Part shown: positions 11,036 to 37,239 of the stretch, in pieces | Numbering within the stretch: the stretch's first letter is position 1 | How the letters are laid out: every line of letters starts with the position of its first letter | Assembly: GCF_018350175.1 (NCBI RefSeq) | Contig: NC_058368.1 | Location: 124,001-188,000, forward strand | DNA: 64,000 nt | Direction of reading: 5' to 3' | Source: Felis catus | Taxonomy: Eukaryota | Position numbers and translations under genes: made by a program | The notes under the pieces: model-generated | Databases searched by the model: none | What the model was told of the DNA's origin: nothing | What the model saw: the letters and a program-made list of their open reading frames with translations, nothing else

Positions 11036-11042
11036 AAAAGGT

Positions 11043-12392: not shown

Positions 12393-12660
12393 AAAATTAA
12401 ATAAATATTTAAAAAAGAAAAAAATAAAAAGAGAAAAAGGAAGGGGCTCCTGGGTGGCTCAGTCGGTTAAGCATCCAATTATGGCTGAGGTCATGATCTC
12501 ATTTGCAAGCTCAAGACCCACATCAGGTTCTCTGCTGTCAGCACGGAGCCTTCTTCGAGTCATCTGTCCCTCTCTCTCTTACCCTCCGCTGCCTGCACTC
12601 TTTCTCTCACTCTCTTTCTATCTCTCAAAAATAAAAATAAACATTAAAAAACAGTAAAAG
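12298..12660 (+). mobile_element. Two tandem Can-SINEs (5'-truncated copy 12298-12440, then full copy 12443-12660)
   Basis: A 3' half SINE with (CT)n and an A tail is followed by a head GGGGCTCCTGGGTGGCTCAGTCGGTTAAG. Confidence 0.85.
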
Positions 12661-12946
12661 AATGGAAAGATACCCAGAGGGACAGTGTTCCTATGAGATA
12701 TTAGAATGGGATAAGTCTGAGGATGAAATGACTAGTAAAATCTCCTGCTAAACTAACTGTCTCAGGAATAAGAAACACATATGGGCTAGGGCAAAGGGAA
12801 AATGCCATCATTTACAGTGGGAGCCCTCATGGCACGATGCCTGTGTGCCTACTTGAGAAAGAAGAGAGGGAAAGCTTTTGGAGTTCATTGTTTTCCCTTC
12901 CCATCCTATCAGTGGATAGAGGCAGCAGTGATTCAAGAGTAGTGGG

Positions 12947-13024
12947 CATTGAGGATGATACTTGTTGGGATGAGCACTGGGTGTTGTATGGAAACCAATA
13001 TGTCAATAAATTATATTTTTAAAA
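12947..13024 (+). mobile_element. Very short L1 3'-end insertion with 12-bp TSD
   Basis: Sequence 'cttgttgggatgagcactgggtgttgtatggaaaccaat...aataaa' followed by an A tail. TSD AAGAGTAGTGGG at 12935-12946 and 13025-13036. Confidence 0.8.
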
Positions 13025-14483
13025 AAGAGTAGTGGGTTTGTGCACAAGTGTTTAGAACTGGGCTGTGGTCTCAGTAAAACTGAAAAAAAAGTTTTAAGAA
13101 AGGAATGAAAACAGAAATAAAAAAGTAAAATCAAAAGTCAAAAAAAAAAAAAAAGAACTGGGCTGTGGTGCAGTAATTCTTGGATGGTTTCTTTCTGTGT
13201 AAACAGGTCACCGAGAATACTGCACATGGGTGAATAAACTGCTCTTCAGAGCGAAAGCATCTTTAACAGCCAGAGAGGGAGGCAAGTTGGCTAACCATCA
13301 TTTCTTTTATCAGCCAGGCAAACACTAAGTACTCCCAGGAAGGCAATCTTTCCTTTGGGTATCAGAAACTGATTGCTCTTGGTTAGGACAGACCAGAGTC
13401 AGAGCTCATTAGGAATGGCTGGGCACTCGCTATGTGGGGGACAGCCTCATTCGCCTTGCCTGGGACCCAAGACATAGTTATCAATACAGCCAGGGAATTG
13501 GAATGGCTACACACAGGGCCAAAGGTTTTCATTTCAGCTGAGAATGGGATAAAGCTGAGAATGAATTGTCTAGCTCCATGTTCCTCTTGTCCCAGAAGTG
13601 AGGATAGTTCCTTCCTGAAACCTCTGACCCTGACTACACACGAGCATTCCTGCTGGGCACCATGAAATTCCCTGGGTTTTTCTTTGTCAACATAGTACTG
13701 AAAGGCAATTTTTGAGGGACCCTGTGTACCAGCATACCTCTGAGCGACAAGAACTTGGCCAGACTTTCTAGTTAAAAGTAGAGAAAATGGCTCTGGGACA
13801 CTGTGCCTGAATGGACAACAGGGAGAACTTAGCTTTAAAAACAGCAACAGGATGGAGGAGAATACACAGAAGGCCAAAGTGCTTTATTAACAGAAGAGAA
13901 TTGGATATAGCAAAAAAAAATGAAGCGACTAGCACAATCTCCTGGCAAGATGGTTGTCTCAGGAATAAGAACACTGTGTGGGTTAGGACCAAGGGAAACC
14001 TCCTGCATTGCTCCTTCAGAAGGAGGGGGAAAGTTTCTGGCATTGGATTTTTTTCTGTTGCCCTGTTCTTTGAGGCAGTCATAATACATAGTTAGCAGTT
14101 TCTGTCTTGTGGCTGACCCTCAGGTATTTGGAAAGTGGCTCTAGAGCACTGGTCCTTGAATGGGCTGTTTCTGCACATTCTGCAGGTCCTGAAGAATACT
14201 GCAAATGGGTGAACTGTCTGCTCTTCAGATGAAGACATCGATAGCAGCCAGTGGTTGGAGTTCTGCTGTCTAACTGTTACCATGCCAACTCCAGGCTTTC
14301 AAGTATCAATTTATCAGTGACAGGGGGTCAATGAATCCTTTTATGTATCAGAAACTGAATGCTTTCAGTTAGCATGGGAGCAACGTGGGAGCTTTCCACC
14401 AATCCCTGGTTTTTCACTGAATTCTTGACAGGCCCACTGTGCCTAGTGGGAACCAACAAATAATTAGACAAACAGCAAGGGAT

Positions 14484-14646
14484 GAGGCACCTGGGTGGCT
14501 CAGTTGGTTAAGCAGCCAACTCTTGATTTCTGCTCAGGTCATGATCTCACACTTGTGAAGTCAAGCCCTGCATCAGGCTTTGTGCTTACAGTGTGGAAAC
14601 TGCTTCGGATCCTCTGCCTCCCTCTTTCTGCCCATACCCAGCTCAT

Positions 14647-14700
<54 letters not shown>

Positions 14701-14745
14701 TCTCTCACTCAAAAAAAGAATGAATGTTTTTTAAAAGTTAAAAAA
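14484..14745 (+). mobile_element. Can-SINE
   Basis: Head GAGGCACCTGGGTGGCTCAGTTGGTTAAG, long (CT)n and an A-rich tail. Confidence 0.9.
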
Positions 14746-17580
14746 GGAAAGAAAACCAGTGATGGAATGTAGATGGACACATGGAGAGCCAAAGTTCTTC
14801 CTTTGAGACTGGGATCAAGCTGAGAATAAAGTGACTAGTATAATCTATTTGAAGCTGGCTGTCTTCAGAATAGGAAGCACCTCTGCACTGGGGGAAGAGA
14901 AAATACTACTGGTTTTACCTGGAAGCCCATTCCAGAGGAAACCATCTGAAATTCAAATGAGAATGGGATACAACTGAAAATGTACTGTATGGCTCAGTGT
15001 TTCGTTGTTCCATAAGCAGGACTGGTTTTCTCCCAACTCCTCTGGGCCTGCCTACATGCAAACATTCCATGCTGGGCACCTTCAAATGCCCTAGGTTTCT
15101 TCATGTATGCATAGTTCTAAAACACAAGTTTTAGCCCAAAGTATTCCAGAGTCCAGAGAACTTGACCCAAGTCCTCGGTTAAATGAGAGGGAATTCTTCC
15201 TAAAATCTGGCCCCAAATGCCTATCAGAGAAAACCTAGTTTTAAAAAAAAAATCCAAAATGGACATAGATATACAGAGGCCCAAAGTTCTTTCTTACAGA
15301 GGAGAATAGGATAAAGCAAAGAAAAAAGTGACTGGCACAATCTCAAGTGTAAAACACACCAATGGTTTGGGCCTAGGGAAATGTATATTGACTACACATG
15401 ATGCCCCTACTGCAAGAAATGTTCATGCAGAAATTTGGTAAGCCAGGAATTCTTCTGGCCATTACCTTTTCTCCTGCCCTTGCCATCAATTATAGATGCA
15501 ACATTCATTCAGTGATTCATGGTCTCCCTGCTGACCTTCAAGTGTTTAGAACCAGTCTCTGGTGCAGGAGTCCTTGACTGTGCTCTTTCTGCACTGACTC
15601 ATATCTGGGAGCAAACTGCCCATCTGAGAGCCTTCTGCTTTTCAGAATGAAGGCAGCTCAGTGAGCCAAGTGAGGGACACAATCAGGGTAAACATTACCG
15701 TGCCACCTGCAGCCTGTCAAGCATCATACTTTCAGTCAAAGAAGAGCAATTTTCTCTTTGGATGTCAGAAACTGATTGCTCTTGGCTAGCACAGGCAGTG
15801 AGGGGAAGGTCTCCATTAATCCCTGAGTGCTTTTATGTGAGTGAAAACCCCATTTCTCCTAAGTGTGACCCAAGACCTTGTTAGAAAATCTGCAAGAGGA
15901 TGGTAATATATGGAGGGCCAGAGTTCTTTATTTTGGAGAGATACAGGATATAACTTTGAATGTGGTGCCTAGCTTCATTTCCCCTTTCTGCAGAACTGAG
16001 GCCAGCTCCATCCCACCCTGTTCCTGCCTACATGCAAACATTCTGTGCTGGGCTCCTTCAGATACTTTATGTCTTTTGTGGCCAACGGTAAGGCTGAAAG
16101 ACAAGCCCTGTGGGTGGGCCCATGTAGTCCAACTTTTCTTAAAGTTGGGAGAACGTGGCCCAACTCCCTACGTGACATGAGAGAACATTGCTCTTATATC
16201 CTGGCCCTAAATCCCCACAGTGAATGCCTAGGTAGAAAAAGTGCAAGGGGATAGGAATGGAGACATCAATGGCCCAGGTTCTTCACTGCAGATGAGGACA
16301 GCATAAAGCTGAGAATGAAATGAGTAGGTAAGATTCTTCTGGCCCCATAAGGGAGGCCAGCTCCCTCCCAGCTCCTCTGGACTTGGCCTATGGGCAGAAA
16401 TTCTGTTCTGGGCACCTTCCAAACCCTTAGGCCTCCCCTTGTCAACATAGTTAGGAAAGGCAAGTCTCAAGGGGCCCCGTTGCTCAACCTATGGCTGAGT
16501 AAGGTAATCTCAATGAGACTTCCAGTTAAAAGCCAAGGAGATATCTTGTGGATGCTGTCTGTGAATATTTCACTGGGAAGACCTGGTTTGATAAAGGGCA
16601 AAATGATGGAAATGGATACATGGAGTGCCAAAGTTCTCCTTATCAAATGCAAATGGGATAAATATGAGAATGAAGTGACCAGAACATTCTTTTGGCAAGC
16701 TGGAGGTCTTGAGAATAAGAAAAACCTCTTGGCTGGGGCAAAGGACACCATCATCGGCTACCCTGGCAACCAGTTTTGCAAGAATTGTTCATTGAGACTT
16801 CAGAAAGGGTTGAGAAGCTTCTGACACTGAGTGGATTTCTTATTCTGCTCTACATTGGATAGTCACCAATGGCTTTGATGTAATGGGTTTTGATACCTAT
16901 GTGTTTGGAATCAGGCTCTGTGGAAGTATTCCTGGAATAGGCAATGCACTGGCCAGTTCTGGGAGCTAAATGACCATCTGGGAATCTTTTGCTTTTCTCA
17001 AGCAGCCAGGGGATGGAGGCACACTGGGTAACCATCAATGCCAAGCCCCACATTCTCAGGAACAGGTAGTTAATCTTTATTTGGATCCCCAAAATCAGAA
17101 ACTGATTGCTCTAGGCTAGCATATGAATGGAGTGGGAGCTAACCACCAATTCCTGGGCATACGCTATGTGAGTGAAAGCCCTATCACGTCTCAGTGTGAC
17201 TCAAGTCCTCCTTAGAAAAACAGCTAGGGGATCAAAATGGATACATGATGGGTCAAAGGCCTTCATTTCAGCAGAGAATGGGACAAAACTGAGAAGAAAG
17301 TGACTAGCTCTGCTGCTCTTCTCCCCGTAAGTAAGGGTGCTTCCTCCCAATTCTCTGGCTTTGCCTATACACCAACATTTTGTCTGGCAAGCTTCAAGTG
17401 CCCTGTCTTTTTATTGTCAAAATATTTCTAAGAGGAAAGTTCCAAGGGGCTTTTTGTCCAATCTATGCCAGAGTCAGGATGACTTGGCCAAGCTCCCCAA
17501 TTAAAATGAAGGGACATTGCTCTTAGGTCTGTCCTTGAATTCCCCACCATGGGGACTTATTTTTAAAAAGAGCAAGGGGA

Positions 17581-17799
17581 GGGGCGCCTGGGTGGCGCAG
17601 TCGGTTAAGCGTCCGACTTCAGCCAGGTCACGATCTCGCGGTCCGGGAGTTAGAGCCCCGCGTCGGGCTCTGGGCTGATGGCTCAGAGCCTGGAGCCTGT
17701 TTCTGATTCTGTGTCTCCCTCTCTCTCTGCCCCTCCCCCGTTCATGCTCTGTCTCTCTCTGTCCCAAAAATAAATAAACGTTGAAAAAAATTAAAAAAA
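17581..17799 (+). mobile_element. Young felid Can-SINE (SINEC_Fc-like) with 16-bp TSD
   Basis: CpG-rich, near-consensus copy. TSD AAAAAGAGCAAGGGGA at 17565-17580 and 17800-17815. Confidence 0.97.
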
Positions 17800-17969
17800 A
17801 AAAAGAGCAAGGGGATGGGAATGGATACACAGAAAGCTAAAGATCTTATCAGGTGAGAATGGGATACTTCTGGGAATAAAGAGAATAGCACAATCTCCTG
17901 GCAAGCTCACTGTTTTCTGAAGGAAAAAACACACGTGGCCTGGGTAAATGGGAAGCATCCATCTGCTTC

Positions 17970-18775
17970 ATGAGGGAGAAGAAGGAAATCTGAGGACCAA
18001 ACACAAGCTAGCATTACCTGTCCCAACCCCAGGAGGGATATGTGTGACATTCCTCAGGCACTCCTGGCTGCGGAAGGACAAAGGAAAGGGCAGAAAACAA
18101 ATGGGTAAACTGATAGAGCCCCCATTAATTTACAAGTATCTTAGTAAATTACAAGAAAAATGCAGGGCTAATATCCAGAAACCTATAGACTCAGTTTTCT
18201 ACAGCCCCAACAGCACCCTGTCCTCCATAGTGATGGGAGGAACAAAGGCAAGAAGGAAATGGCATATAAAACTGAATTTCCTGGCGTGTCTGGGTGGCTG
18301 AATCCCTTAAGCCTCTGACTTTGGCTCAGGTCATGATCTCACAGTTCTTGCGTTCCAACCCCATGTGGGGCTCTTTGCTGACAACTCAGAGTCTGGAGCC
18401 TGCTTCATAATCTATCTCTCTCTCTCTCTGCTGCTCTCCTGGTGCATATTCTCCCTTTCTTTCTCTCTCTTTCTCTCTCTCACTCTCTCCCCCTCTCTCT
18501 CAAGAAATAAAAATTAAAAAAAATTAAAATGTAATTTCCTTGTCACCTGCAGCCCATTGACAAATACTTGAGGCTGTCAGAGTAAAATGCCTCTCCAGGA
18601 ACTCTCTGCTGTCTTAATGTTAATGTTTTGCCAGAGGGAAAAACAAAACAAACTTAGCTTGACAACATAGCTAGGCCTCCACTAATCTGTGAGTCCTTAG
18701 CATGTGAAAGTCCCCTTGTAAACTTGCCTTTTGACTTTACCTTCCCCAAACCCATATTATATAACCAGTCTTCAC
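17970..18775 (+). mobile_element. Probable ERV1-class LTR fragment (3'-truncated), interrupted by a Can-SINE at ~18283-18530
   Basis: Interrupts the 1-kb repeat, begins TG, has LTR U3-like composition and a TATATAA near 18758. The SINE is flanked by a duplicated AATTTCCT. Confidence 0.5.
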
Positions 18776-18896
18776 ACTATTAATAACAATAACAATAGCA
18801 ATAATAATAATAATAATAATAAATCTGAAAAAACACCCTGAGGACCAAAGTTGTTCACCTCAGGTGAAAATGGAATGGAGCTGGGACCTTTGACAT

Positions 18897-19188
18897 TGTT
18901 GGAGAAGTGGATAAAGTACACCAAAGATGGCTGATTGGACTAAAACAAACTCTGGTCACTAGCTTAGAGACCCCTCCTCCGGGTTCTTCTTCCTTTGTTT
19001 GCTGTGTGCGTGAAAACCCCCACAGATATGGAGGCTGTCAGCTATAAATTACCCTCCCCATTCAGGGCTCAGACCTTTGGAGAAACAGTCTCCTCTGAGC
19101 CCGCTGGTGTAAAATAAATCTCCAATCCACCAAGATCTCCGAGTGCCACTTGGTTTTTCCACCAGCATTCCAGCCTGGTTCCCTAACG
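18897..19188 (+). repeat. ERV 5' LTR
   Basis: Runs TGTTGGAGAAGTGGATAAAGTACACC...TAAC(G) with TATAAA and AATAAA. Direct repeat of 25131-25443. Confidence 0.95.
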
Positions 19189-19192
19189 TACT

Positions 19193-19210
19193 TGGTTCCC
19201 TGACTGGGAA
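19193..19210 (+). promoter_or_regulatory. Retroviral primer-binding site, tRNA-Glu(CTC) type
   Basis: TGGTTCCCTGACTGGGAA is a 17/18 match to the complement of the tRNA-Glu-CTC 3' end (TGGTTCCCTGACCGGGAA) and lies 4 nt after the 5' LTR. Confidence 0.9.
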
Positions 19211-20199
19211 ACCCAACCGCGCTGGCCCATTGTTGCCACTGGTTTGGGAGAACAGCGAGGTGGTGATGGAATGAGGGATCACAAGGGAGAGCACGCACCC
19301 TGCCTAAATTTCGGCAGTCACCTTCTCTGTCCCCTTCAGGCCGGCCTTGCTCCGCCGTTCCTGCTGGACTTGAGGAGACTTGGCAGATAAGGACCTGGAC
19401 CTGACGTTGGAACAGGTAAGACTGGGGCCCAATCTAGTCAGGCCCACTCCCAAGGGTGGAAGGGGGACCTGATCACTCCCTGAGACTTCAGAAGTCTCAC
19501 AGGTAGGGAATCTATGGTAGGAAATATAATAACCTCTGGTGTGTACGTGAATGTGAATATGCGACTTGGTCTGGCTTGCCTGCTAAGTCCGATTCTGTGG
19601 CTCCACAGGCAGGCGCCCTTGGGGTCCCCAGGGGGCTACAGAGTCTGAGTGGGCCCATCTGCGTTTCCATGATGGATGGAGCTAGGTCTGTGGCGATATC
19701 AGAATGTTTCTGATCATGGGTCGCAAGGCTGGGACCTGTGGAGTTGAGCATCGCCTGGGTTCCTTCAGGACACTGCCAGGTGGGCATCTGGCTGGTCTCC
19801 TCACTGGAGGGGGCGCCCCTGTCCCTCTGTCTTTGTGACTCTGCCTCACAGGAGCATTGTGGGGTCAGGATGGAGCCACGAGAGCCAGGCAAAGGTTTTA
19901 ACTGCTTTATCCAGAGACTCACCCGGGGAGCCAAAGAAGCGACTCACAGCTCCCCTAATGTTCCCCACTTCATGACTCTTTAGGACCCCTCCCCTCTCCC
20001 CTGAGCTTGAAAATCCTCCCCTGGTGGACTCGCTGCTGCTGCCAGGGCACTGCCAGGGCGCTGCCAGGGGAGCTGCCCATTTCTCCTCCCCTTCCAGGCC
20101 AGAAGACCCTCCCCCACAAGGCCAGGCGCAGGCACTCTCCAGATGCTGGTCCACATCCGCTGATATCAAGAGGCTATCAGGAGGATCAGAGCAGGTGGC

Positions 20200-20740
20200 T
20201 GAGAAGGCCATAAATATGCCCAGCTGCAAGGGGAAAGGACATTAAAAAGAATAAATGTCCCAACCAGGGGAAATCCCAAAAAGCCAGCGGAGATCAGGAG
20301 GAACCTCAAGAAGGGGACCTTATTGGTCTAGCTGAGATAGAACCAGACTAAAAGGGGACACTGACTCTCTCTGTTCCTCTGCTAAATAGATGTGAGGGAT
20401 TCTCCCTCATTTCCCAGGTTAACAGCTATAATTGGAGCCAACTGTGGTTAGTCTACCTCGGGACAGGGACTTTAAGGAATATTCCCAAGCAGTTGCTCCT
20501 TCTGCCTTCCCCTCCCCCTCATGTTTCTGCACCAACTTGGGTGTGGTCCTGTACCATCCTCAGTGTCTCAGGTACCATTGGTTCCTCCTCCCACCCTCCA
20601 AGTCAAGGAGCAAAGTGTACCTCCCCTTGGACCACCCATTTAAGATATCTCCACTGGTGCCCAAATGAAAATTGACAATGGGAAAAAATTGATTGACTTT
20701 TAGGTGGATGCAGGTGAAACATATTCGATGTTTAAACTAA
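20200..20740 (+). pseudogene. gag-pro: ERV gag C-terminus (CCHC knuckle remnant) and protease N-terminus remnant
   Basis: ~20215-20260 reads as a broken C..SCKGKGH*K..KCP knuckle, with the gag stop near 20349. ~20680-20735 reads KLIDF*VDAGETYS, a decayed LVDTGA active-site motif. Confidence 0.7.
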
Positions 20741-23220
20741 TTTAAGTTTATGGGACCTGTCTTTAAAGTTATCAGCAAAGGTCAAATAAGCTCATGTTAT
20801 CTCTGTTGCAGTTTGCTAATGATACTTAATTTTGTCTCAAAGTTTTCATGGGTAATTGTTAAGATAACTTTCAAGGTCCTTGGTAACCTGAAACTTTCCA
20901 AATAGGATGGAATGCTACAGCTTTGATTATTGAACATAGGTTTGCGTTTTTAACTTCTTATTGCTGAGAAATTAAGGCTATTTGGACCTATTGGGAAACA
21001 TGCTTTGTACTTAATTGGTTCATGAATTTACCATCTAAAAAAATTCTGATGTAAACACCTCTCAACTGGTTACTAAGTCCTCAATTGGAGACTAAGTGTT
21101 CCTAAGAGTTAAAATTCTGCTAAATGTACTTAAGACTGATGAAAATAAAGAAAGCAACTCTGTATGTAGGAAAATAGGACATATATAAGAAAAATATAAG
21201 GAATGGAAATACAGTTTTGTTGAGGGTAGAAGAAAGTAATTTTGTCCTAAATGGGACTGGTTATTTGGAAAGAAATAGCTTTGGGACAAAATTTAGAAGC
21301 AAAAGAAAGTTATAGAAGGTTGAGATGAATGGAATTTTAAAAGTACACTAGTATAAGGTTGAAATCCTGCTTTTCTCTCTGCTCAAATGACAAAGTTTTC
21401 TTGACCTGTTGATCTGCTCTTGTTAAGACAATGCAAACAAAGATTTATCCTCCAGGAAAATCAAAGTTTTAGGTCTCATCTCTATCAGGTCTTTGATTAC
21501 TTAGTTAAAACTTCTGAATGTTAAAGGAGCTAGGTTTTGATAACAACTGTATAATGCTATACATTCACCTTTGGGATCTTTTATTGCCACTTTGGTTGAA
21601 TATATAAAATGGTAAGATTTGTAATGATCTGTAATCCTATTTAGGATGCACTTATGACTTCTGGGGCTTTAACAAACTTCTCAGGATTTAAATGGTAAAT
21701 GAAGTCTTCTTGGCCAATTAGGTCTTTTTATTTGGGATGTTAAGTTATTTGGAAAAGCTGTCATACAATAGTAAACCTTAGATTGCACAGGTAAATTCTG
21801 TAACTGCCCGGATATATGCAATTCCTAAAATTTTAATGTTTTGATATGAGGTCATCACTTAATATTCTGATTACTTGAAATGTTGTGTGCTACAGAAATA
21901 ACCGAATTTCTTTGTCAATTGCATCATAATGAACTCTCAGATCTTTAACGATGTCTATTTCCGAGATTTTGCCATTTATAATTGTTCTTATTCTCTCACA
22001 AATCGTGTTTGTAAAAAAGGACTTTGGGGATAAATACAGGTATTTGACATATTTAAGATTAATACTAAAATGGGTAAAAATTTCCGGAACTAAAAAGCTG
22101 CATTCAAATTGAACAAGAATTAGGAACATGGGATTAAATGAACTGAGGAAGATTATAGTTTTGTGATTCTTGTTGAAAATATTGCTGGTTCTCTAATGTT
22201 TCATCTTCCAGATTAAGAAAACTTTCTCTTAAGATATCTATGACATACAAAAATGTCATAAAGTATGCATTTGTAAACTGAAGCATTTATCTTTTCTCTC
22301 TACATAACTCCCCTGAAATTCAAAACTCTCAATGAGTATTCTTTCTTTCATGGCAATCACAATTGTTTGCATATAAGTTCAGTAAGAATCTGTTCATCTT
22401 GTAACAGGTCACCACTGGAAATACTGGTTATTTTACCAAAGCTTTGACTGGAATGTCATATTTGAGGATGACATTCATAGACTCAGATATGACCAGACAG
22501 ATTTAAGGAATTAGGGTTGGCTTTATAAAACATGGAGCCATAAAGCCCCTTGGAAATGTGGGCCTGGTGCCTTGCTTACAGAGTTCCCAGCAGCCTCACC
22601 AGATAGGTAAAGAAGGTCACTTCCTGGCAGGTGCAGGAACTTCAGGATATCTTGGGGACCTCATGAAGAGGAATTCGCCCAATTCTACAGGTATTGCAGG
22701 CCTGTCTGATGAGAAGTATTTGGCTTGGCTTCTGGCCTGGAGAGGCTACTAAAAGTTCAACCTGGAGATTCCTTATAAAAGATTCCAACAAAGTAAACTT
22801 TAAGAGATCCTCATGATCAATCGCTATTCTTGCTGAGCTTATGTAAATAATTAGGCCAGATTTGTTAAGACTGCATTTGCTCTACAAATGCATTGGTCTC
22901 AATTTGGCTATCTCTGGAAAGGGGGGGGGGGTGTTTAGAGAGAACAACTATGTTTCAACAATGCACCATTATGGATGTTAAATTCTAGTTATGATTGCAT
23001 TTAAATGTTTGTTGTTTGCCTAAACTAGACAACTTGAGGTAAACTTCAGAAAATTGTCACAGTATTTCATGTATAGGCAATCTTCTATGCTTGTTATTCT
23101 ATGGGGATAATAATAAGACCCCATGAGCATATGATTATTTAAACAACTGGAAAACAGGATGGATCTCTAAATATGCAAACCATATCTTCCCTAAACCTGA
23201 TCTGACAGTTACCAGAAACC

Positions 23221-23400
23221 CGCCCCTTTCGAAGACTTGGAAGTGGACTTTACAGATATACAACCAAATAGAGGATTTAGTTTCAGGTAACACCCCATGG
23301 GTCCATCACTCCAGAGCTAAGAAGGCCAACTCAGAGGAACCCTCAACTTGGCAAAGTGATCCAGATCCAGTCAACCCGCTTAAACCGACTCTCAAAAAGA
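23221..23400 (+). pseudogene. pol: ERV integrase remnants
   Basis: PFEDLEVDFTDIQPNRG (integrase core start) is joined almost directly to GNTPWVHHSRAKKA...DPVNPLK (integrase C-terminus). Confidence 0.75.
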
Positions 23401-23488
23401 CACTGGCTCCTGAGATCTCCAGCCCTGCTCCAGTCACACCCCAGAAGCTGGCTGGCCTGCGCATGGCAGAAGCTTGAGGAATCAACAT

Positions 23489-25077
23489 ATGGACAGAGCC
23501 CAGGGGCTTGGATGCAACTCTGCCAGCCCTTGTCCCTTACTGGTGTCATAGCCCTGATCTTCTTGCTTTTGGATTGATAGAGACTGCACCAACAAGCTGG
23601 GCATGGGACAAAAGATGCATGCCGGGTCTCACATACCTCCTCTGGATGGGAGAATTATTAAGTATTGCCTGTATATTATAACCTCTCTCACCCTCACAAC
23701 TGCCACTTACCCACTTTGCCCCCAGGATTGTTATACGACAATAAGGGGGGTCAAGGGCATTCAGTGCCTTCACCTCCCTCCACAAAGAGTGCTACAAGGG
23801 AAAAACAGCCACTCTCTGTCAGTCACCTGGTGCCCCAAGGACTAAGTATTGGACTGTAAAGATAACCCAAAATGTCAGGAACCCATGTCACAACAAGGGC
23901 CTCCAGAGTGCTTTCTACACTTACCTTCCTCAATGGGGGATCTCGAGGGATATCAGACAGGGGAGGGAGGCAAGACAGGGCCCTTCAAAAGGGCATACTC
24001 CTTATTAAGCATACCCAGGACAAGGTAATACAAGCCATAAAGGTGACCACTCCCCCAGCAGCCTACCAGGGTTTGAACCTTTCAGCCCTAAATCAGATGC
24101 TTACCAATTCCCCACTCCAGTGTTGGGTCAACACTACAAGTCCTCCATAAAATAGATAATCACACCCAAACCTGCTGGATGTGCTTGCCCCTCAGCTGGA
24201 GGGCTTACTTAGCCACTCCTCTCCCTTTGACCTGGGAATCTCCTGAAGTTCTCAAAACCAACACCTCTGTCTTAATTGGATCCCTGGCCACTGGGATCCA
24301 TCTCACAAATGCCGACAATCTAACCTGTACGGTCCCTGAAGGTATGAATGGTACCTCTCTATATGGAAGAAATATAACCTCAAAGAGGAATACAACCCAT
24401 GTTCAACCCCTGGGGTGTTCTATCTATGTTCTCATTTGGCCTAACGATGCTTAGAGGCCAACTGGACTCTGATATGTTATTCCGTCTTCCTAACCCCAGA
24501 GATATCCGTGTACACTGAAGATCAGCTCCTAACAGCCTTTAGCCCCAAGTCCTGGGCTAAACCAGCAATCCCACTACCCGTTCTGATAGCTGAAGGAATT
24601 GCGACGGGAATAGGAACTGGAATAGGGGGCATAGGTTCATCCATAGAACTATACCCTAGACTATCTCAAGAGCTAAATGAAGACATGGAACAGGTGGCAG
24701 ATTCTCTGGTAACCTTACAAAGCCAAATAAACTCTCTGGCGACAGTGACCCTCCAAACTTCAGAAAAAGGAGAGACTTGCATCTTTATGGGGGAGGAAGG
24801 TCGCTGTTTTGTAAACCAGTCAGGAATAGTTACAACTAAGGTTAAGGAACTCAAGGAAAGAATTCAATATAGACAACAGGAAAATATCAATCAGTGGAAA
24901 GGATGGGATCTCACAGATTGGGCATCCTGGCTTCCTGCCCTGGTGGGGCCCCTCCTCTCCATAATTTTACTTGTATCCATCGGCCCCCATATACTGAATG
25001 CCATGGTATGTTTTATTGAAATCACTGCTGCTCGCCAAACTGCATGTATCTTAGCCTTCCAAGAGCATCAACTGTAA
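23489..25077 (+). pseudogene. env: ERV env pseudogene, gamma-type, TM similar to HERV-W/syncytin-1 family
   Basis: CWMC motif at 24173-24184. ORF 24508-25077 contains a fusion peptide (GIATGIGTGIGGIG), LSQELNEDMEQVADSLVTLQSQINSLA, VNQSGIVTTKVKEL and a hydrophobic anchor. SU has stops and frameshifts; the furin site and CX6CC are degraded. Confidence 0.9.
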
Positions 25078-25130
25078 AACTGAAAAGTGATGCCTACTAA
25101 AAGTTTTTTTAAAGGCATTAAAGGGGGGAA

Positions 25131-25443
25131 TGTTGGAGAAGTGGATAAAGTACACCAAAGATGGCTGAATGGGCTAAAACAAACTCTGGTCTCTGGCTTA
25201 GAGACCCCTCCTCTGGATTCTTCTTCCTTTTTTTGCTGCACACGCAAACCACCCCCCCCCCCACACACACACACATATGGAGGCTGATAACTATAAATTA
25301 CCCTTCCCACTCGCATTCAGGGCTCGGATCTTTGGAGAAACGGTCTCCTCTGAGCCCGCTGGTGTTAAATAAATCTCCAATCCACCAAGATCTCTGAGTG
25401 CTGCTTGGTTTTTCTGCCAGCATTCCAGCCTGGTTCCGTAACA
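25131..25443 (+). repeat. ERV 3' LTR
   Basis: TG...TAACA, preceded by the polypurine tract. Homologous to the 5' LTR. Confidence 0.95.
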
Positions 25444-28127
25444 GCTTCTTTCACTCTCACCTGCTCTGGAAACAGACTGGGCATGCGGGAACTTTTAGAG
25501 TCTCAGAAAGCAAAATTTTCAGGCAGTCTATGGCAGGGGCACAGAGCACAGTAATAGTCACTGAACAAACATAAGACTTCAGTGCCCCAAGTTTTTAGGA
25601 GGACAACATTGTTCCCTTGATACCAGAAATTAGTTGTTATGGGTATAGAAGACAACCTTCATGTACGCTCACTTGAATTAATCAGCCCTATCAGTGTGGC
25701 TTTTTTTTTTTTTTTCACTTCTGACTGTGACCCTGAAGGCCACATTTCCATCAGTTTTTGCCATAGAAGTGAGGCCAACTATCTCTGAATATCACTGGCC
25801 CCTACTCACAAGTAATCCTCCTGTGCTTAACACATTCAAGTCCCCAATACCTCCTGTTCTCAAGGTAGATCTGGCAGACAACCCCAGGGACACCTCTTCC
25901 TCAAGATCTTCCAAACTAATGGGAACTTGGCAAGACTCCACAAATAAAATTGGAGAAAAAGGCTGCCAGACTCTGGCACTGGATGTCTCACAGTGAAAAC
26001 ACGGTCAAGTGTAAGGGAATTAAAAAGGGTACACTGAGGGCTAAAGTTCTTCATCTCAGAACAGAATGAAGCTGTAGATAATGCTACGAGCACAATTCTC
26101 TGGGCACGTTTGGTGTCCAAGGAGTAAGAAAGACCTGTGGTCTGAAGAGAAGTGGACCATCCACTGGCTATACCAAGGAATTCTGTAGGCAAAGTCATGC
26201 ACCCGAGCTTCAATAAGGTCTGGAATGTGTCAAGCCATCACCAGCTTTCAAGCCCTTCCTATCTGTGGACAGACACAGTTGTTACTAACAAGATAGGATC
26301 TTGCTCCTGGCAAGTCTGCAGATTCGGGCTCTTATATTTTAGTCTTTGAGTATTTTTGTGCCCTAAGCTGCTCAATGAATGCACTTGACATGCATGAACC
26401 CTGAGTGTGTCAGGAGGTCAGTAGCTCAGACTTTCCTGAAAGGGGTGGACAGAGAGCAGGACTATGGTCCTGTGCCAACAGAATCCTGCCAAACACAGAG
26501 TTCTTCCTGGCAGGAGGTCAACCTTTCCTTTTCTATAGCAGAAATTAACTGCTATGTGATGACACACGGTGTGAGTGCAGGCTCTCCAGGAATTACTGGG
26601 TGCTGTCTGAGGGACAGCCCTGTAGCTCCTGAATTTGACCCTAGGCCCTTTCTCCAGAAAGGAGATCAGATCCTTCCCAACATCATCCACCCCGTGCACA
26701 TGCAAACTTCTTCTGCTGAACAGTTTCAAAGGCCCTGTGCCTCCTTCATCTTGTGGAAGAGTTCCATGGACACCTGTTGCCCAGCCTATTCCAGGTAACT
26801 GGGAACCAGTCACAACTCCATGATTAAAATCAGAAAATGTTCCCCAGTTATGTCTGTGTATGTCCCCTAATGAAATCCTCATTAATGAAACAGCAAGGGA
26901 ATCTGAAGGGATGCACCAAGGGCCAGATGTCTTCATCTCAGAGGAAAATGGTATCAAGCTTCACATGAGGGCACTAGCACTTTTCCCAAGGTAAGGTTGG
27001 TGTCACCAACATAAGTGGGCCAAATCTAAAGGGAACATCCTTGAGCTACACTTAGGAGCCCTGTGTGCAAAAGGGCAGTCACTCTTTTCCATTCCTTTCC
27101 TTCAGTGATAGAACAGTGGTGGTTTGGGGGCTCTTGTCTGGCTCCTGGCTCACACCCAAGTCTGTGGAAATGGGCTCTTTTCTTGTAGTTATTGAGTTTA
27201 CTTTTTTCTATCCTTGCCTCTCCAAGGTATGGACTTTGCACGGACAAACCGTTAGTGTCTCAGAATGAAGGAAGTTCAGGCATTCCACGAGGTGGGGAGA
27301 GAGCAGGGAGTGACCATCTGGGCCAACACAGTCCTGCCAAGCACTGAGTTCTCAGGAACAGAAGAAAAACCTTTCTTCCCCAACGAAGCAATCAAAACCT
27401 AATGGCTGTGTGGCAGCACACCACCCAAGTGGGAGCTTGCCTAGAGTTTCTTGTCACTGTCTAAGGACAGCCCAGTTGCTCCTGACTCTGACCTCTGATC
27501 TCAGTCTCTTCTTGCTCCTGAAGTGAGGTGGGCTCTTTCCAGGACCACCTGCATTGAAGTGCATTTGGGTTTTATATTCTCTACTCTTTTTCACATCTAA
27601 CCATATTGCTTTGCTGCGTGATACCTTTCTTTGGATTGCATTAAACACAGAGAGCACATCACTCTTTGCTTTTATGTCTTTGGCTATATAGACATTAATA
27701 TAACATGTTTGACTAAAGTGGGAAGCCTTCCAGAGGTTGAGCTTTGAGTAATTCTGTGTGATCTCCAAACAGGTAAGTGATATCTAACACAAATATAGAA
27801 ATATCTAAATTCACTTGAGAGGCAGTCCGTCATGTGTGGCTTCTGAATTTTGTCAAATTCTACTATCACCTAGGAATGATGAGTTTGAATATTTTGAAAC
27901 TCTTCTGATTAGAAAATGTCATAAAGAAACATTGAAACTTCATGATAACACATTCTGCTCCCATTTTTTTCTTCATTTATTCCAAATATTTGAGTGGCAA
28001 ACATTTGATTTAATGATATTACTGCTGAACTATAAGCATAAAGACAAAATAAAAACAAACATTCTTGGAATAAGTGAGTCAGTCACAATAAATCATTAAG
28101 CATTTTTTTCTTTCTCTGTTATTTTTT

Positions 28128-28685: not shown

Positions 28686-28924
28686 GAAAAAAATGAGCAG
28701 ATGATTTGATCTTGTTATTTTTACACTTCCATTTTGACCCCACATTCCTGACTCAGACATTTTATCTCGGAGAACATTGTTCACAAACATGATCACTTTT
28801 GTTTTGGGGCTGTGCTTACTAAGCATTGAAATCAGAAATACGAAGATAGGATGTCTGTGGATAAAGTGCTTTTCAGGGAAAAATAGGAAAACATTTCAAT
28901 TACTTGATCAATTTAAAAGGTATA

Positions 28925-29061
28925 AGGGCACCTGGGTGGCTCAGTTGGTTTAGCGTCCAACTTCAGCTCAGGTCATGATCTCACAGTTTGTGAGTTCAAA
29001 CCCCACATCAGGCTCTGTGCTGAGAGCTCAGAGCCTGGAGCCTGCTTCATATTCTGTGTCT

Positions 29062-29106
<45 letters not shown>

Positions 29107-29180
29107 CCCCTCCCCCACTTGCGTGTGAACTCTTTCTTCTTAAAAATAAACATTACAAATTGAAAAAATAAAAAAATTAA
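28925..29180 (+). mobile_element. Can-SINE
   Basis: Head GGGCACCTGGGTGGCTCAGTTGGTT, (CT)n and an A tail. Confidence 0.92.
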
Positions 29181-29992
29181 AAATATAGCTCAATGTAACA
29201 GTTTTAGTTTATCTGAATTTATTTTATAATTAATGAAAATTTTTTCAGGACCAATTAATTTTTATGTAAGTGACTTGATGTTCCAGTGACAACATAATGC
29301 ATTAGGTATAGATTCTGCTTTTTAAATTTTTATAATAGGAAATTTTATAATAGGAAATTTATATGTTAGAGCAGGGAGATCAATGATATGTGATCTCCCA
29401 TGGTGGACAATCCATAATCAGTTATAAACTAGCCACATCCGAGGTTCATTTATACGAAGAAGAAACACATCTGTATTCTGTTTGTGCCACTTTGTGTTAC
29501 TTTGACATCTACTGCAGGTTCCCAAATCTCATCCTTAACCAAAGCAAGAACTTTATCATTGGAGCACTGTGTGACTTTGGAAAGGATCTATCCTGAAGGA
29601 CAGATCTCTACATACCAAGCAGCAGAGGCAGGTGTGGAAGTAGACTGATTCTGAGATACAGTGCTTCTTCCTGTTTGATATCCATGCCCTCTCTACTGGG
29701 AACAGTAGGTGGTTGTGGGGTTGGGTGGTTGCATAAGACCTACTTCCTGAGCAGAGTCTTTCCTTACCGTACTTCATAAGACAGGGAGCACACTCATGCA
29801 CTGCTGGGTTAGTGATGTCCTGCGTATCTGGTGGTGGACACAGACCTGATATTTTCCTCATCAGCTCCAAATATTTGCCTGTTTTATGAAGTTTTTTATA
29901 CCTGTCTAAAATAAACCGGTATACTTAGTACACAGGTGTGCCTGAACGCTCCCCACCTGACACCCTATCCAGTGTTAATGGAGCCTAACATC

Positions 29993-30269
29993 ACACCCTC
30001 TTGAGAACTGCAGTTTGTAGTTATGTTTCCAAGCTCTCATTGTACTGTGGGGTGACTGAAATGATCAAGACACTAGGACTGGCCCAGATCACAGGAGGTG
30101 GGAAGAGTCCAGAGGATAAAGCTGGGCTCTGCCTTTATAGGCCCTGGCTCAAATCCCTCCCATCATGTTTGCTTTAGAAATGAAAGACTTTAATTTTCTG
30201 GGAGGAAACATGCCCACTTGCTCTCCATTTGGGGTCATTTTACTATCCAAAACCCCACATGTGCACTGG

Positions 30270-30312
<43 letters not shown>

Positions 30313-30556
30313 AAAGGTGTGCTCAAGAAAAAGCAGACACTGGGGAAGTGACAAGACAGAAAGAAGAAAGAGGTTAGAGAGAGCTCTGCCATGGGGCACC
30401 AGCATCCATTTTCTTAGCTGCATGCTCAAAGGCCCAAATATGGGCCAGAAATTCCTGATATTGGTAGGTTTCTCCTGAATCCAGGGCCATCCTTGGCCCA
30501 GACTCCAGAGGAAGGACTAGGGTACTTCAGTGCAACTCTGTGGTACCTGGAAATAT
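29993..30556. repeat. ~500-bp element, copy 2 (duplicate of 11043-11575)
   Basis: Colinear with copy 1. Carries an expanded (CA)n at ~30270-30310. Confidence 0.9.
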
Positions 30557-30569
30557 GAGGTCACCATAA

Positions 30570-33500
30570 TAAGGACACCACCAGACTCCCAATCTGAAAA
30601 AGATGATATTACTCTAAGATGCTGTCTGGGAATTATCCCCATCCAAACCCTATCTAAACAAAAGGGCTCAGGGGTGGCCTTGGGACACACACACTGCCAG
30701 AGTTCTTCATCAGACATGAGATTTGGAGAATGCTGAGAATGAAGTACCGAGTGCAGTCTCCTATCAATCAGGTTGTATCCTGAATAAGAAAGGCCTGTGG
30801 GCTTAGGCCACAGGAGCATCCTGAACACTACACCTGGGAGCCCTGTCAGCAATAAGCTGGCATTCTTTTTTACACTCAGTGATTTCTGGCTTGGTCTATC
30901 CCTGCCACTTTCCCATCAGTTGAGGGAGGCAGCGCTGTTTGAGCTGTAGTTATAGGGTTCTGAGGGCTCTTGCTCAGGAATCTGCAACAAGGAATTGGTT
31001 CCCTCACTCTTGGCAAGGGCTCTTCCAATGCTGACCCCTCCTGGCTCATACTGCCTATGTGCAAGCTGTCTGCTTCTCAGAATGAAGGCACCTCAGTCAT
31101 CCAGGTCAGTGAGGCAAGCTGGCTCCCCTAGACCCTCCATAGCACAGCAGGCCAAGCACCAAGCACCCAGGCACTAAAGGCCTTCTTTCCTTTGGTAGAG
31201 CAGATCCTGATAGCTCTCACTGAGCACAGGAGCAGAGTGGGAGTTTGCAGGCTACCCAGGGGTGCCAGCTGAGTGAGTGACAGCTCAATGTCTCCTAAGG
31301 GAGAAAAAAATTCATTGTGAGAAACACAATGATGGAAAGGAAATGGGCACCACTGGGTCAAAGCTTGACATTTCCAGTGGGAATGGGGATACACTTGGAA
31401 AGATGGCTTTCTTCATTTGTCTCTGCCCAGAAGGAGGCCTACTTTCTGCCCAAATCTCTGGCCTAGCCTAAATACCAGACGTCCTCTGCTGGGCCCCTTC
31501 AAATCCCTTAGCTCAGAATGGCTGCATACTTCTGAAACCCAGAGAATTAATGAAGAAGGAGCCCTGTGGCAAGATCTCTCCCCCAGTCACAAGGACTGGA
31601 CCAGACTCCCAGGTGGAAGGCAGAGACACTGCCTCTAAATCAGAGACACTGATTCTAAACAGATGTGTGAATAACCTTGTTTTTACAAAAGGGCAATGAT
31701 GTGTCAAGGTAGAAGAGGAGGGCCAGGGCTCTTCATTGCTTGGAAGGGGAATTCTATGGAGAAGAGAGTGCCCAGCACCAGCTCCTGGCATCCTGGCTGG
31801 ATGTGGGAAGAAACACCAGAGGGTTTAGGCAATAGCGCCCTCTAGGGACTCAATCTGGGAGCCCTGTCAGCACCAGGCCTGCCTTCTTCCTTCAGAAGGA
31901 CCTAGAGAGCCCTGGGACTTGGTCTACTTTTGTTGCTTTTCTCATCTTTCAATGGAGTGAGCAGTGAAAGTGCTGTAGCTGGGAGATGCCCCAGCTGTGG
32001 CTCAAAGTGTGGAGACAGGCATTGATGTCCTCTTCCTGTAAGAGGCTCTTTCTGTGCTGACCAGCTTCTGGAGCCTACTGCTCCTGTGTGAACTGTCTGA
32101 TTTTCAGAAGGAAGGCACCTCAATCAGGCAGACCAAAGAGGCGAGCTGGCTCCACTCCCCACACCCCACCCCCCACTTCTTGCTACAAACAGACTAGCAC
32201 CAAGCTCAGGGACAGGAGGGCTATACTCCTTTGGGATGGCTATCTGATGCTGATGGCTATAATTGATTACAGTCCTAGTGGGAATATGATGCCTGTCCCT
32301 GGGTGCCTGCTGAGTGAGTGCCAGCTCCATGACTCCTAAGGGTGAAAGAAGAGGCAGTCAGAAACACAGGAAGGGAGAGCGGATGGTTGTAGTCAGGACC
32401 AAAGGGTGTTCAATATTTCCATCCAATGGGAATGAGATCAATGTGGAATGGAGATGTTTATCTTCATTTCCCCTAGGCCCAGCAAGGGGGCCAGCTCCCC
32501 ACTAAAACGTCTGACCCAGCCCCCCGACACACAGCTCTCAGCTGCACCCCTTCTGATGTCCAAGGACTCTGGATGTCCAGGTAGTCTTGAAACCTAAAGG
32601 CCAAGGCCACTTTGGCTCTACCTGTCCCAATGCCATAAGGGCTGGTCCCCATTAGAAATCTGCAAGGTGGAGATAGTACTCAGAAAGACCGAATTTGTAT
32701 GGACACCAAAATGAACCTTGATGGATGATAAAGCAGTGTCATGAAACTGGATACAACAAGGGCCATAGTTCTTCATGTTTAGAAGAATCTGACTAGCACA
32801 ATGTATTTGCAAGCTGTCTTGCTCAGGTATCAGAAGCACCTTTTGTGGGCTTTGGCTCCAGGAGTGCTGCAAAAGGATGCCTTTGGAGCCCTGTGACCAA
32901 GGGGCCCACATTCTCCATTAAGAAATAGAGGGGATCTTTGGCTTCTGGTGTGCTTCTGCCCATCATATGCATCGAGAGGGGCAGCAGAGACTCTGAGATA
33001 TGAAGAATGTGCTTCCATGCGACAATCAAGAGGTTGGAACGAGGCCTTGGTGCACTATTTATTCAAAAGACTTTTTGTACACTTATCAGGTCATGGAGCC
33101 TGATGTATTTTCACAGAGTGTCTGTTCTTTCAATAGAGGGTAGCTCCATCCATTAAGGGCAGGGATCCACATGGCTCTCATTCCCATGATACTGTATCCT
33201 GACTAGCACCAGAAGATCAGGGACAGGGGGTGTAACTGTCCTCTGGGACATCAGCCTTTGAGAGCCCTGCATTGGGTCAGGAAAGGTTTGGAAACTCACC
33301 TCCAAACCGGGGATCTCAGTTGGCATAGGGGACAGACACAGGGTCTCCGTGTGTGAATTGAGACCAAGTTAGGAAAGCAGCAATGGGAGAGGAATGACTA
33401 CAAGGCGAGTCAAAACAGTGCATTCAGATGGGCATGAGGGAAACCGGGAAGGGTGACCCCAACCTTCCCTTCCCCATGTTCCACACATGTTCCACACAGG

Positions 33501-36500
33501 GATCCATCCACTACCTATGCCTTAGCCTACTCACAAGCATTCTTCCTGGGCACCTTCACACACTCTGGGTGTGGAGAGGGCCACATAATCCTGAAACCAA
33601 ATTGAGAAGGGCCCTATGCAGTACCTCTATCACCATCACAAGCTCACCACCAAAGCCCCAAGATGAAACAAGAAGATATTATTCTGAGACACTGTCTCAG
33701 AATACTTTACCTTCTTTGATCAAAAGTGCTAATGGATGACAATGGAGACACACACTGCCAGAGTTCTTCATCCCACATGTGATCTGGAGAAAGTTGACAG
33801 TGACTTACCCAGAGCAGTCTCCTATCAACCAGGTTGTATTTGGAATAAGAAAGACCTGTGGGCTTAGGCCCTCTGAGGGACTATACCTGGGAGCCCTGTC
33901 AGCAAGAAGCCTGCATTCATTCTTTAGGAGCCAGTGATTTCTGGCTTGGTCTATCCCTGCCACTTTTCCCATCAGTTGAGGAAGATAACAATGTTTGACC
34001 TGGGGTTATTTGTTTCTGATGGCCCCTGGTCAGGAATCTGCAACAAGGTCTTGGTTCCCTAATTCCTGGCAATGGCTCTTCCAATGCTGACCCCCTCCCA
34101 GTTCATACTGCCCATGTGCATACTGTCTGCTTCTGAGAATGAATGCAACTCAATCTAGGTGGGTGCGGCAAGCAGGCTCCTTTTCACCCTCCATAGCACA
34201 GAAGTACAAGCACCAACCACCCTTTCCTTTGGTAGAGTAGAGCCTGATAGCTCTCACTGAGCACAGGAACGGCGTGGGAGTTTGCAGCCTACCCAGAGTT
34301 GCTAGCTAAGTGAGTGATGGCTCCATCATTCCTAAGGATGGATGAAGAGGCAGTCAGAAACACAGTAAGGGAGAGGGAATGGCTGCAGCAAGGACCAAAG
34401 TGCATTCAATGTTTCCATCTAATGGGCATGTTATCAATTTGGAAAGGAGATTTTTCTCTTCCTTTAGGCCCAGCCAGGGGGCTAGCTCCCTTTTATATGT
34501 CTGGCACAGCCTCCACACAGGCAGGTCTTGGCTGGAACCCTTCCAGTTCCCTAGGGTTCTGGATGTCCATGTGGTCCTGACACCAAAATTCTAGGGCCCC
34601 TTTGCCTTCACCTGTCCCACAGTCACAATGGCTAGTCCACATTGGACATTAGGAAGACGGAGGTAGTACCCTGAAGGACTGAGTTTCTATGGGCCACATG
34701 TCAAACCGTGATGGAAAATAAAGCAATGCCATGAATCTTGATACATTGAGGGCCATAGTCATTCATGAAGGATGAGAATTGGAATTTGGCTTCTGGTGTG
34801 CTCCTGCCCATCCTATTAGCATGTAAGGGCAGCAGTGTTCTGAGATATGAAGAATATGCTTCCATCTGATGATCAAGAGTTGAGAACGAGGTCCAAGTGC
34901 ACCATTTATTCAAAAGGCTTTTTGTGCACTGATGAGGTCATGGAGCATGCTGCACTAGCACGGACTGTCTGTTCTTCCATAAGAGGGTATCACCATCAAT
35001 TAGGGGCAGGAGCTCTATGTGGTTACCCATTCCCATGATATCTAGCCTGCTAAGTATGGAAGGCTCAGAGACAGGAGGGATACCTGTCTTCTGGGACATC
35101 AGACTCTGCACATGGACAGAATGGGAGTATGTGGCCTACCCCAGGGTGCCACCTGAGTCAGTGACAATTCCATGGTTCCTATATGTGAATAAAACTATAT
35201 TTAGAAACACAGCAATGGGTTGGCAATTGCTAGGAGGAGGAGGGCCAAAGCTCGACATTCCAAATGGGAAAAGGATCAATCTGGAAAGCAGATGTCTCAC
35301 TTCATTTCCTTTCAGCCCATAAAGTAGGTCAGCTCTCTCTAGCAACCTCTGGTCCAGCATAGAAACATTCTCCACTGGACCTCTTTCAATGACAGGCCTC
35401 TAGATGTCCCTATACTCCTTCAGGAAGGAAATAAATATCTTCATTTCTTTTTACCCCATGCAGAATCCTGGCTCCCTCCCCCAGACCTCTGAATTAGACT
35501 ACATACAAACATTCTCCTTTGGGTAACTTCAAATGCCCTAGGCCTCTGTATGTCCACATAGTTCTAAAACCAAATTGAGAAAGTCCCAATGCCAAACCCA
35601 TATCACAGTCACAAGGATACCACCAGACTCCCAAGTCGGAAGCATAAAATATGACTCTGAGACACTGTCTCTGTTTGGATTCCATGTAGAACGTTGTTTC
35701 CCAAGAAAAGACAATGGTATATAAAGGGAAACCACAGATGGCCAGAGTTCTTCCCTAGAAATGTTAATGGGGGAATGTTGAAAATGAAGTACCCAGCACA
35801 ATATCCTAGCAGTATGACTGTATTACCAATACTAAAAGCCTGAGAGTTTAAGCAAAGCGAGCCCTCTACAAGGTACACCTGGGATCCCTGTCAGCAATTG
35901 TCCTGAATTCTTCTTGCAGCAGGAGCCTGAAATCCCTGGCTTTGTCTCTTTTTCCCACTTTTGCCATCAGTGTATGGACACAGCAGTGGTTGAGCTGTAG
36001 TTGTTGGGTGCTCCTGCCTGTTGCTCAGGCATCTGGAACCAGAACCTGGTACTGTCTTCCTAGAAAGGGCTTTTCTTGCACTCACCAGCTTCTGGAGCAT
36101 ACTGCCCATGTGTGAACTGTCTGCTAGTGAAAATTAGGACATCTCAAGCAGCCAGGGGAATGAAGCAAACTGGTTCTCCTTCACCTTCCATAGCACAACT
36201 GGCTAAGCACCACGTGCTCAGGGACTAACAGACCATCTTCTCTTTGGATATTTGTCACTGGTCACTCTCACTGAACACAGGACCAACGTAGAAACTCCCT
36301 GCCTCTTCCTGGGTGCTGGCTGAGTGTGTGAGAGCTCCATGGCTCCTAAGTGTGAGCAAAGACCTGGTTAGAAAAAACAGTGATGGGAAGGGAGGGCCCC
36401 CAGGAGGGCCAATATTCTACATTTTCAATGGGAATGGAATCAAACTGGAAAGAAGATGTCTAATTTAATTTCCACTCACCCCAGAAAAGAGACCAGCACC

Positions 36501-36850
36501 CTTCCGAAACCTCTGGCTTACCCTACCCACAAACCTACACAAGGCACCTTCACATGGCCTAGGCCTCTGGATGTCCAAATTGTTCTGAAACAGAATTCAA
36601 AGGGACTGTTGTGCAACATTTACCCCACAGTTACAAGGACATCGCCAGACTCCCCACTTCCAAGCAGGGGATATTCCTCACAGAGCCCAACTCTGAATGG
36701 ACCCTAGGGATAACTTCCCCTGTAAATTTAGCAAAGTGGTGACAATGGATACATGGAAGACCAGCGTTCTTTATGAGAGATGAGAATTGGACAATGGTGA
36801 GGATGAAGGGATTCTCCTAGCAAGCTGGCTGTTTCAGGCATTGCATGAAA
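30570..36850. repeat. Array 2 of the degenerate ~1-kb tandem repeat (~6-7 units)
   Basis: The 'gccagagttcttcat...gagaa' motif recurs at ~30695, 31720, 32760, 33757, 34750, 35740 and 36760 (period ~1.0 kb). The second motif recurs at ~31355, 32395, 34392, 35242 and 36405. Confidence 0.85.

Positions 36851-37202: not shown

Positions 37203-37239
<37 letters not shown>

Follow-up and report, generated by a model that had tools for sequence, protein, structure and literature searches.

Macrosatellites such as SST1, ZAV, PRR20 and TAF11-like consist of kilobase units arranged head to tail in one orientation at a few loci, with monomers of 2.4-6.6 kilobases (kb) that, where identity is stated, are 92-99.7% alike, often carry CpG islands and are polymorphic in copy number (PMC3018141). 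The felid DXZ4 locus is X-linked beside PLS3, rich in CpG islands and provided with CTCF sites in each unit (PMC8662614). Human subtelomeric composites of the TELO_Comp type have spread to several loci by segmental duplication, their subtelomeric arrays being neutral (Hoyt et al., 10.1101/2021.07.12.451456). The non-coding transcripts TETY1, NTY1 and NTY2 of the cat ampliconic Y illustrate how a segment of an autosome can have non-coding paralogs in many copies that date from the felid stem (PMC1420679, PMC6280758). Here we describe a tandem array of about 1.0-kb units in Felis catus, located within a stretch of 64,000 nucleotides (the window; assembly GCF_018350175.1, contig NC_058368.1, positions 124,001 to 188,000 of the forward strand), to which all coordinates refer. 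The array is confirmed as real, and we favour, with moderate confidence, its interpretation as a fossil tandem array without present function at this locus, set in a subtelomeric mosaic and later spread by segmental duplication.

A first-pass annotation of the window had claimed an array of same-orientation units of about 1 kb that share ordered motifs. The motifs were present in the order given, and the array proved to be composed of two subunit types, 'a' of ~650 base pairs (bp; model 668 bp) and 'b' of ~350 bp (model 355 bp), which have a ~110-bp head in common at their starts; a b+a dimer forms the 1.0-kb unit, and the a-to-a spacing in the last of the three blocks into which the array is split (Table 1) is 994-1041 bp. 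Twelve a and 14 b subunits are near-complete, all of them on the + strand, and some units contain an extra b (15870/16221 and 35190/35400). A profile of the head (110-160 bp), trained on the array copies themselves, produced 30 matches in the window, 26 of which had an expectation value (E) <= 4.1e-10; these 26 were all on the + strand between 12641 and 36842, and the weaker ones comprised three on the + strand inside the array and one on the - strand outside it. In leave-one-out searches every one of the 12 a subunits was recovered, at E 5e-137 to 2.5e-55, as was each of the 14 b subunits, at E 3e-71 to 1.6e-15, the best match in the reversed-window decoy having E ~3, and a sensitive self-comparison gave many +-strand matches of 55-72% identity over 12.6-36.85 kb. 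In alignments of the near-complete subunits, which left out three partial a and one a tail, the a subunits had a mean pairwise identity of 54.5% (range 45-82%) and the b subunits one of 53.7% (range 37-75%). The youngest local duplication is found in block 3, where 33630-35108 copies 30561-33260 less one unit at 75-82% identity. The G+C content of the array is 48-49%.

Age was evaluated from trees of the two subunits, from which the short b35190 was excluded. Both trees were star-like, with a median tip branch of 0.28 changes per site, and gamma shape values of 9.3 and 10.0 indicated little rate variation among sites. The copies clustered by position, with 2 label changes as compared with shuffled means of 5.4 and 5.9, which fits local unequal crossing-over, and blocks 2 and 3 each made up one side of a well-supported branch. 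Kimura two-parameter (K2P) distances reached 0.60 in two deep pairs and were 0.27-0.31 and 0.20 for the duplication in block 3. The array is interrupted by an endogenous retrovirus (ERV) whose long terminal repeats (LTRs), already noticed as diverged in the first reading, show 89% identity where their columns align and a K2P distance of 0.116; the tip branches amount to ~5 times the corresponding per-lineage divergence of 0.058, suggesting, on a rough clock, an origin well before the cat-dog split. If 20-27 million years (My) are allowed for 0.058 changes per lineage, 0.28 changes correspond to ~95-130 My, a figure subject to the facts that the ERV has no clear target-site duplication, that array sequence is missing across it and that alignment error inflates deep distances. 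With the cat-dog split taken as 50-60 My (PMC1420679), the array is probably about twice as old as Carnivora by this clock, and thus early placental; a carnivore-only origin would need an approximately doubled rate, and subtelomeric DNA can evolve fast in felids (PMC5155386). The carnivore origin initially proposed was therefore not borne out, the contrast between tips of 0.28 and an LTR divergence of 0.058 making 'carnivore' probably too narrow. A MIR profile built from six presumed MIR pieces of the flank recovered no more than 5 of the 6 sequences used to train it, otherwise gave E >= 0.8, and was rejected as too weak for dating.

Short interspersed elements (SINEs), L1 tails and the ERV are nested in the older array, as had been proposed, with target-site duplications for four inserts; one was also sought for the SINE at 14485, where none was convincing. 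We take the SINEs and L1 pieces of the window to be of carnivore or felid type, and the insertion in a12640 to be an L1 3' tail. Three SINEs (12440-12640, 14485-14745 and 17581-17799) occupy equivalent A-rich positions where a unit head begins and are of different ages (66-72% mutual identity), which suggests a reused target of the L1 endonuclease. An LTR-like piece at 17990-18850, split by a SINE, is flanked by a 12-bp duplication of part of the unit head. At ~19410-19510 the ERV resembles, by eye only, an X/Y-enriched cat ERV family (Supplemental Figure S13, PMC6280758), the Y copy of which is dated to ~20 My (14-27) in that paper.

No conserved reading frame had been seen in the units, and the alignments agree. 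Deletion lengths were multiples of three in 9 of 63 cases for subunit a and in 3 of 30 for subunit b, the longest stop-free runs of the consensus sequences were 70 amino acids (a) and 97 amino acids (b, minus strand), and a protein search with a 132-amino-acid open reading frame of the unit gave no match among four candidates, which were of 72-231 amino acids only; the conserved open reading frame per unit that marks gene-containing arrays of the DUX4, USP17 and PRR20 type is thus not found here. The array contained no match to CTCF patterns and no CpG island, and its CpG observed/expected ratio was 0.09-0.13 in the three blocks as compared with 0.12 in the left flank. Strand asymmetry of substitutions was not significant (A>G/T>C ratio 1.19, p 0.21). 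An excess of TEAD-like words (49 versus 20 expected) was dismissed because repeat copies are not independent. At this locus the array shows neutral-looking decay like that of methylated DNA, and no function was shown. Taken together, the star-like trees, low rate variation, flank-like CpG content and frame-free indels support the fossil interpretation.

Evidence for copies elsewhere came from sequencing runs, 24 of which were listed for 30561-36850 and 4 of which were compared over 29900-41040. The runs X8, X12 and X13, from three species and three studies, gave two classes of contigs. Those of the first class were 97-100% identical to the window at depths of 2-6 and represent the locus itself, which is present in the three species. 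Those of the second class were 90-93% identical to the array; for 7 of the 8 listed pieces the second-best site in the window reached 62-77%, the eighth being in segment X (89%). Since X8 holds both classes, the second represents paralogs in the same genome, barring a similar contaminant in three separate studies. The paralogous pieces are 110-210 bp in length and are spread over 30.3-41.0 kb, including 90-93% copies of the adjoining array C at 40184-41037, with no single long paralogous contig, and with an identity floor of 90% more distant paralogs may be visible by their best patches alone. Of 16 inspected sites within aligned units, the array-majority base stood in the contigs but not in the window at 6 and in the window at 5, with 5 unclear, a table that favours well-supported sites and so shows homology, not rate. 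Of the 24 listed runs, six of unstated kind contained 0.85-0.87 of the words of 30561-36850 and four were unindexed raw reads. A 20-base array motif had one match in metagenomes, on L001, with no similarity beyond the motif, and was rejected as a chance match; that contig appears to carry a small pair of genes of phage or plasmid type (L001:500-1140), which has no connection with the array.

These paralogs also bear on an alternative that we consider rather unlikely, namely that the locus was the ancient source of a felid family with many copies, of which the younger ones, subtelomeric or Y-ampliconic, undergo germ-line transcription into a long non-coding RNA (lncRNA) or a precursor of PIWI-interacting RNAs (piRNAs), with an autosomal origin like that of TETY1. 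Single sites (31130, 31765 and 32100) are covered by 5-8 different contigs, summed depths in X8, X12 and X13 are as high as 44-87 within the array and 143-165 where array C ends, its last 250 bp having the deepest paralogous contigs of all, in X13, and deeper paralogous contigs in runs guessed to be RNA may mean transcription; the RNA nature of all three runs is, however, a guess, copy number alone would also lift depth, and summed contig depth is a measure of neither expression nor copy number. The runs have correlated depth profiles (Spearman 0.62-0.81, 19 bins), although the 90% cut-off passes the same best patches in each species and could itself give such a correlation. In X13 one contig links sequence resembling the unit end at 33273-33317 with array C sequence resembling 40776-40915, skipping ~7.4 kb, which would reflect either a deletion in a paralog or a splice, but canonical splice ends could not be read at the joint. 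The runs recorded as RNA that hold array words are all metatranscriptomes (7 of 7), another seven, for which RNA is a guess, contain 0.06-0.29 of the words, and a raw poly(A) run (X24, ~2% read, tissue unknown) gave <=0.32x on either strand of block 3. Transposition from autosome to Y with testis expression is documented in cats (PMC1420679, PMC6280758) and several human macrosatellites are expressed in testis (PMC3018141). The described cat Y transpositions derive, however, from A2 (two) and A3, no A1-derived Y segment being described, with ~10% of the ampliconic Y sequenced (PMC6280758), and TETY1 itself was rejected as the source of the paralogs because it derives from A3 (PMC1420679, PMC6280758). 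Five array motifs were absent from 4 of the 5 supplementary files of PMC6280758, a weak test by exact match in gapped alignments. A bolder form of this alternative, which we hold to be slightly more doubtful still, is that a placental-age array at the felid A1 tip seeded a germ-line-transcribed family (lncRNA or piRNA precursor, possibly Y-ampliconic) and marks an ancestral chromosome end that would be traceable beside CCDC115 in other mammals.

It is improbable, in our estimation, that the unit is already catalogued as a Dfam or Repbase satellite, as an unclassified eutherian repeat or as a tandem stretch inside an old mobile element. Numerous old families without classification, among them EUTREP, Eutr and MamRep, are listed in Repbase (PMC5753468), and with multi-copy paralogs de novo repeat finders are likely to have picked up part of the sequence. 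The unit itself, by contrast, lacks paired LTRs, terminal inverted repeats and any remnant of a coding region, its copies cluster in the trees by position as in local tandem growth, and no description was found in the literature searched, which lay mostly outside subscription papers. The array is probably undescribed.

The suggestion that the array hosts, or once hosted, a repeated small RNA, of a microRNA (miRNA)-like or small nucleolar RNA (snoRNA)-like kind in each head or unit as in imprinted eutherian clusters, fared worst. Unit size, single orientation and the probable early-eutherian age fit such clusters, and a short stem-loop can be sketched by eye in the head, the best-kept part of a. 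When the consensus sequences were folded, 2 of 56 windows gave z scores of -2.9 and -3.2 (25 shuffles each); on the other side, RNAalifold found no consensus pair over 22 heads, and the + strand head windows of the a consensus scored between -0.2 and 0.9. A hairpin, C/D or H/ACA element in each unit, as expected of a miRNA or snoRNA cluster, was not found: the Rfam scan of the window gave a transfer RNA (tRNA) alone at gathering score, none of the 13 weak matches, mostly on SINE microsatellites, coming near that score, and the C-box motif occurred once as compared with 4.2 expected. All 17 precursors given for chrA1 in a table of cat gonad miRNAs map to 21.5 Mb or beyond (PMC9548565), so that no listed gonad miRNA is near the A1 tip. 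We therefore judge a small-RNA host very improbable. XIST/TSIX, SNORD115/116, miR-379/410 and X-linked miRNA clusters were dropped on the grounds of the array's neighbours and the empty Rfam scan.

For the fossil array that we favour, the following history can be proposed. Duplication of the 110-bp head produced the two subunit types, and head-to-tail multiplication of the b+a dimer followed. Most copies would derive from one early burst of unequal crossing-over, probably in an early placental ~95-130 My ago by the crude clock, with later local duplications building block 3, the last at ~0.20 changes per site. Homogenisation then ceased, after which the copies decayed like methylated neutral DNA and gained SINEs, L1 tails and the ERV. 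A segment that extends at least from 30.3 to 41.0 kb of the window, to which the paralogs point, would have been copied to one or more other places before the three cat-family species split, exchange between chromosome ends being the simplest route, with a date close to that of the ERV insertion or later.

Several observations weigh against this interpretation. Subunit a is unevenly conserved: of 2000 column shuffles, which ignore autocorrelation of alignment quality, 1 matched the spread of its 25-bp profile and 83 matched the height of the peak, which lies in the head. In subunit b conservation was unremarkable (376 and 780 of 2000 shuffles). Bin means of the paralogous contigs are 14-16 over 30644-32503 as compared with 0.7-2.8 over 34364-36967, and one contig has a depth of 143 at 40835-41037, in the last 250 bp of array C. 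The raw RNA comparison comprises just one library, of unknown tissue, over 29900-41040 alone. The clock behind the age is rough, and the orthologs seen are all felid. Finally, the subtelomeric position relies partly on provisional distances, and none of the paralogs has been placed in a genome.

Four unrelated repeat domains, the array among them, abut one another over 9.9-45 kb (Table 1), and arrays D, main and C and the GT tract resemble one another only via SINEs, transposable-element pieces and segment X. The two copies of segment X have the same orientation, each adjoins an array, and they are 87% identical over aligned columns (K2P 0.14). Array D shows an age gradient, with 78% identity between its first two copies and ~60% between copies two steps apart. 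Array C begins exactly where the main array ends; its insert at 39660-40050, presumably a piece of an LTR element, has many related contigs in the examined runs. The GT tract, of 3.9 kb, has a CpG observed/expected ratio of 0.41, above that of its neighbours; since the strand rich in G is directed away from the presumed telomere, the tract cannot simply be what is left of a telomere. To the right of the array lie the tRNA-Glu gene, a first exon that we take to be that of CCDC115, for which Pfam gave no match, and the Brix-domain gene IMP4. An ARAGORN 'tRNA-Arg' at 9481-9566 was rejected, as it sits in a SINE head. The array probably lies in a subtelomeric mosaic, the window probably ending ~0.1-0.4 Mb from the start of A1, a position not mapped but estimated from cat miRNA coordinates, provisional gene distances and the human distances between these miRNAs and ATP7B and SCEL. 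The miRNA coordinates are A1:21.52 Mb for miR-15a/16 and A1:63.67 Mb for miR-17-92 (PMC9548565, Table1.XLSX).

Table 1. Positions of the array blocks, inserted elements and neighbouring features in the window
Feature	Position	Strand	Remarks
Array block 1	12640..18895	+	a12640, b13467, a13822, partial a14750, b14895, a15229, b15870, b16221, a16576, b17201, partial a17799, head at ~18830 cut by ERV
Array block 2, most diverged	25443..27550	+	a-subunit tail, b25700, a25989, b26600, a26871, b trace
Array block 3	30561..36841	+	b end, six near-complete a, seven b (one short), partial a36729
Example of the shared head (core ~110 bp)	13469..13633	+	
Array part and adjoining segment X with the most abundant 90-93% contigs	30320..34363	+	three runs
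Decayed ERV within the array	18897..25442	+	env remnant matches TLV_coat
LTRs of the ERV	~18897-19187 and 25131-25442	+	
Presumed L1 3'-tail insertion in a12640	12947..13036	+	12-bp target-site duplication
Second poly(A) insert	13070-13153		16-bp target-site duplication
Young carnivore SINE at unit head	17581..17799	+	96% to SINEs outside the array; 16-bp target-site duplication
Array D	9939..11063	+	~3.6 copies of 314 bp; neighbours ~78% alike
Segment X, copy 1 (~500 bp)	11060..11563	+	
Segment X, copy 2	30047..30558	+	directly precedes block 3
Array C	36842..41050	+	~330-bp units of three 110-bp monomers; ~10 degenerate copies
Degenerate GT-rich tract	41060..44960	+	T+G = 78%; no long period
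tRNA-Glu(TTC) gene	47108..47180	-	landmark beside CCDC115/IMP4

Even if it is a fossil only, the locus would offer a rare kilobase-unit array still readable after perhaps 100 My, useful as a marker, with datable bursts, insertions and a later duplication at a probable chromosome end. Its 90-93% paralogs cause mismapping beside CCDC115/IMP4 in cat genomics. If the paralogs are transcribed in the germ line or Y-linked, they would form an unrecognised amplified family in felids, where macrosatellite change has been tied to hybrid sterility in the case of DXZ4 (PMC8662614).

Among described systems, the ~1-kb macrosatellites shown for Martes were set aside, being abundant and of 57-71% GC as compared with 48-49% here, a comparison made by description (PMC9957230). 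With felid DXZ4 the array shares the character of a compound cat locus with more than one divergent tandem array (PMC8662614), but it lies beside tRNA-Glu, CCDC115 and IMP4, is CpG-poor and has no CTCF match. The name macrosatellite, used by the first-pass annotation, is apt as regards the head-to-tail kilobase units in one orientation, at ~1.0 kb the small end of the range, and SST1 and ZAV likewise have no open reading frame; in the strict sense it does not apply, since monomers of that class are >90% identical (92-99.7% in PMC3018141), whereas those of the CpG-depleted cat array are on average 54% alike and at best 82%. As in TELO_Comp (Hoyt et al.), unrelated repeat subunits and arrays stand side by side in a mosaic, although the lineage is different and the cat core array is far older and more decayed. 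By analogy with these systems, the locus would work like a decayed macrosatellite inside a subtelomeric composite.

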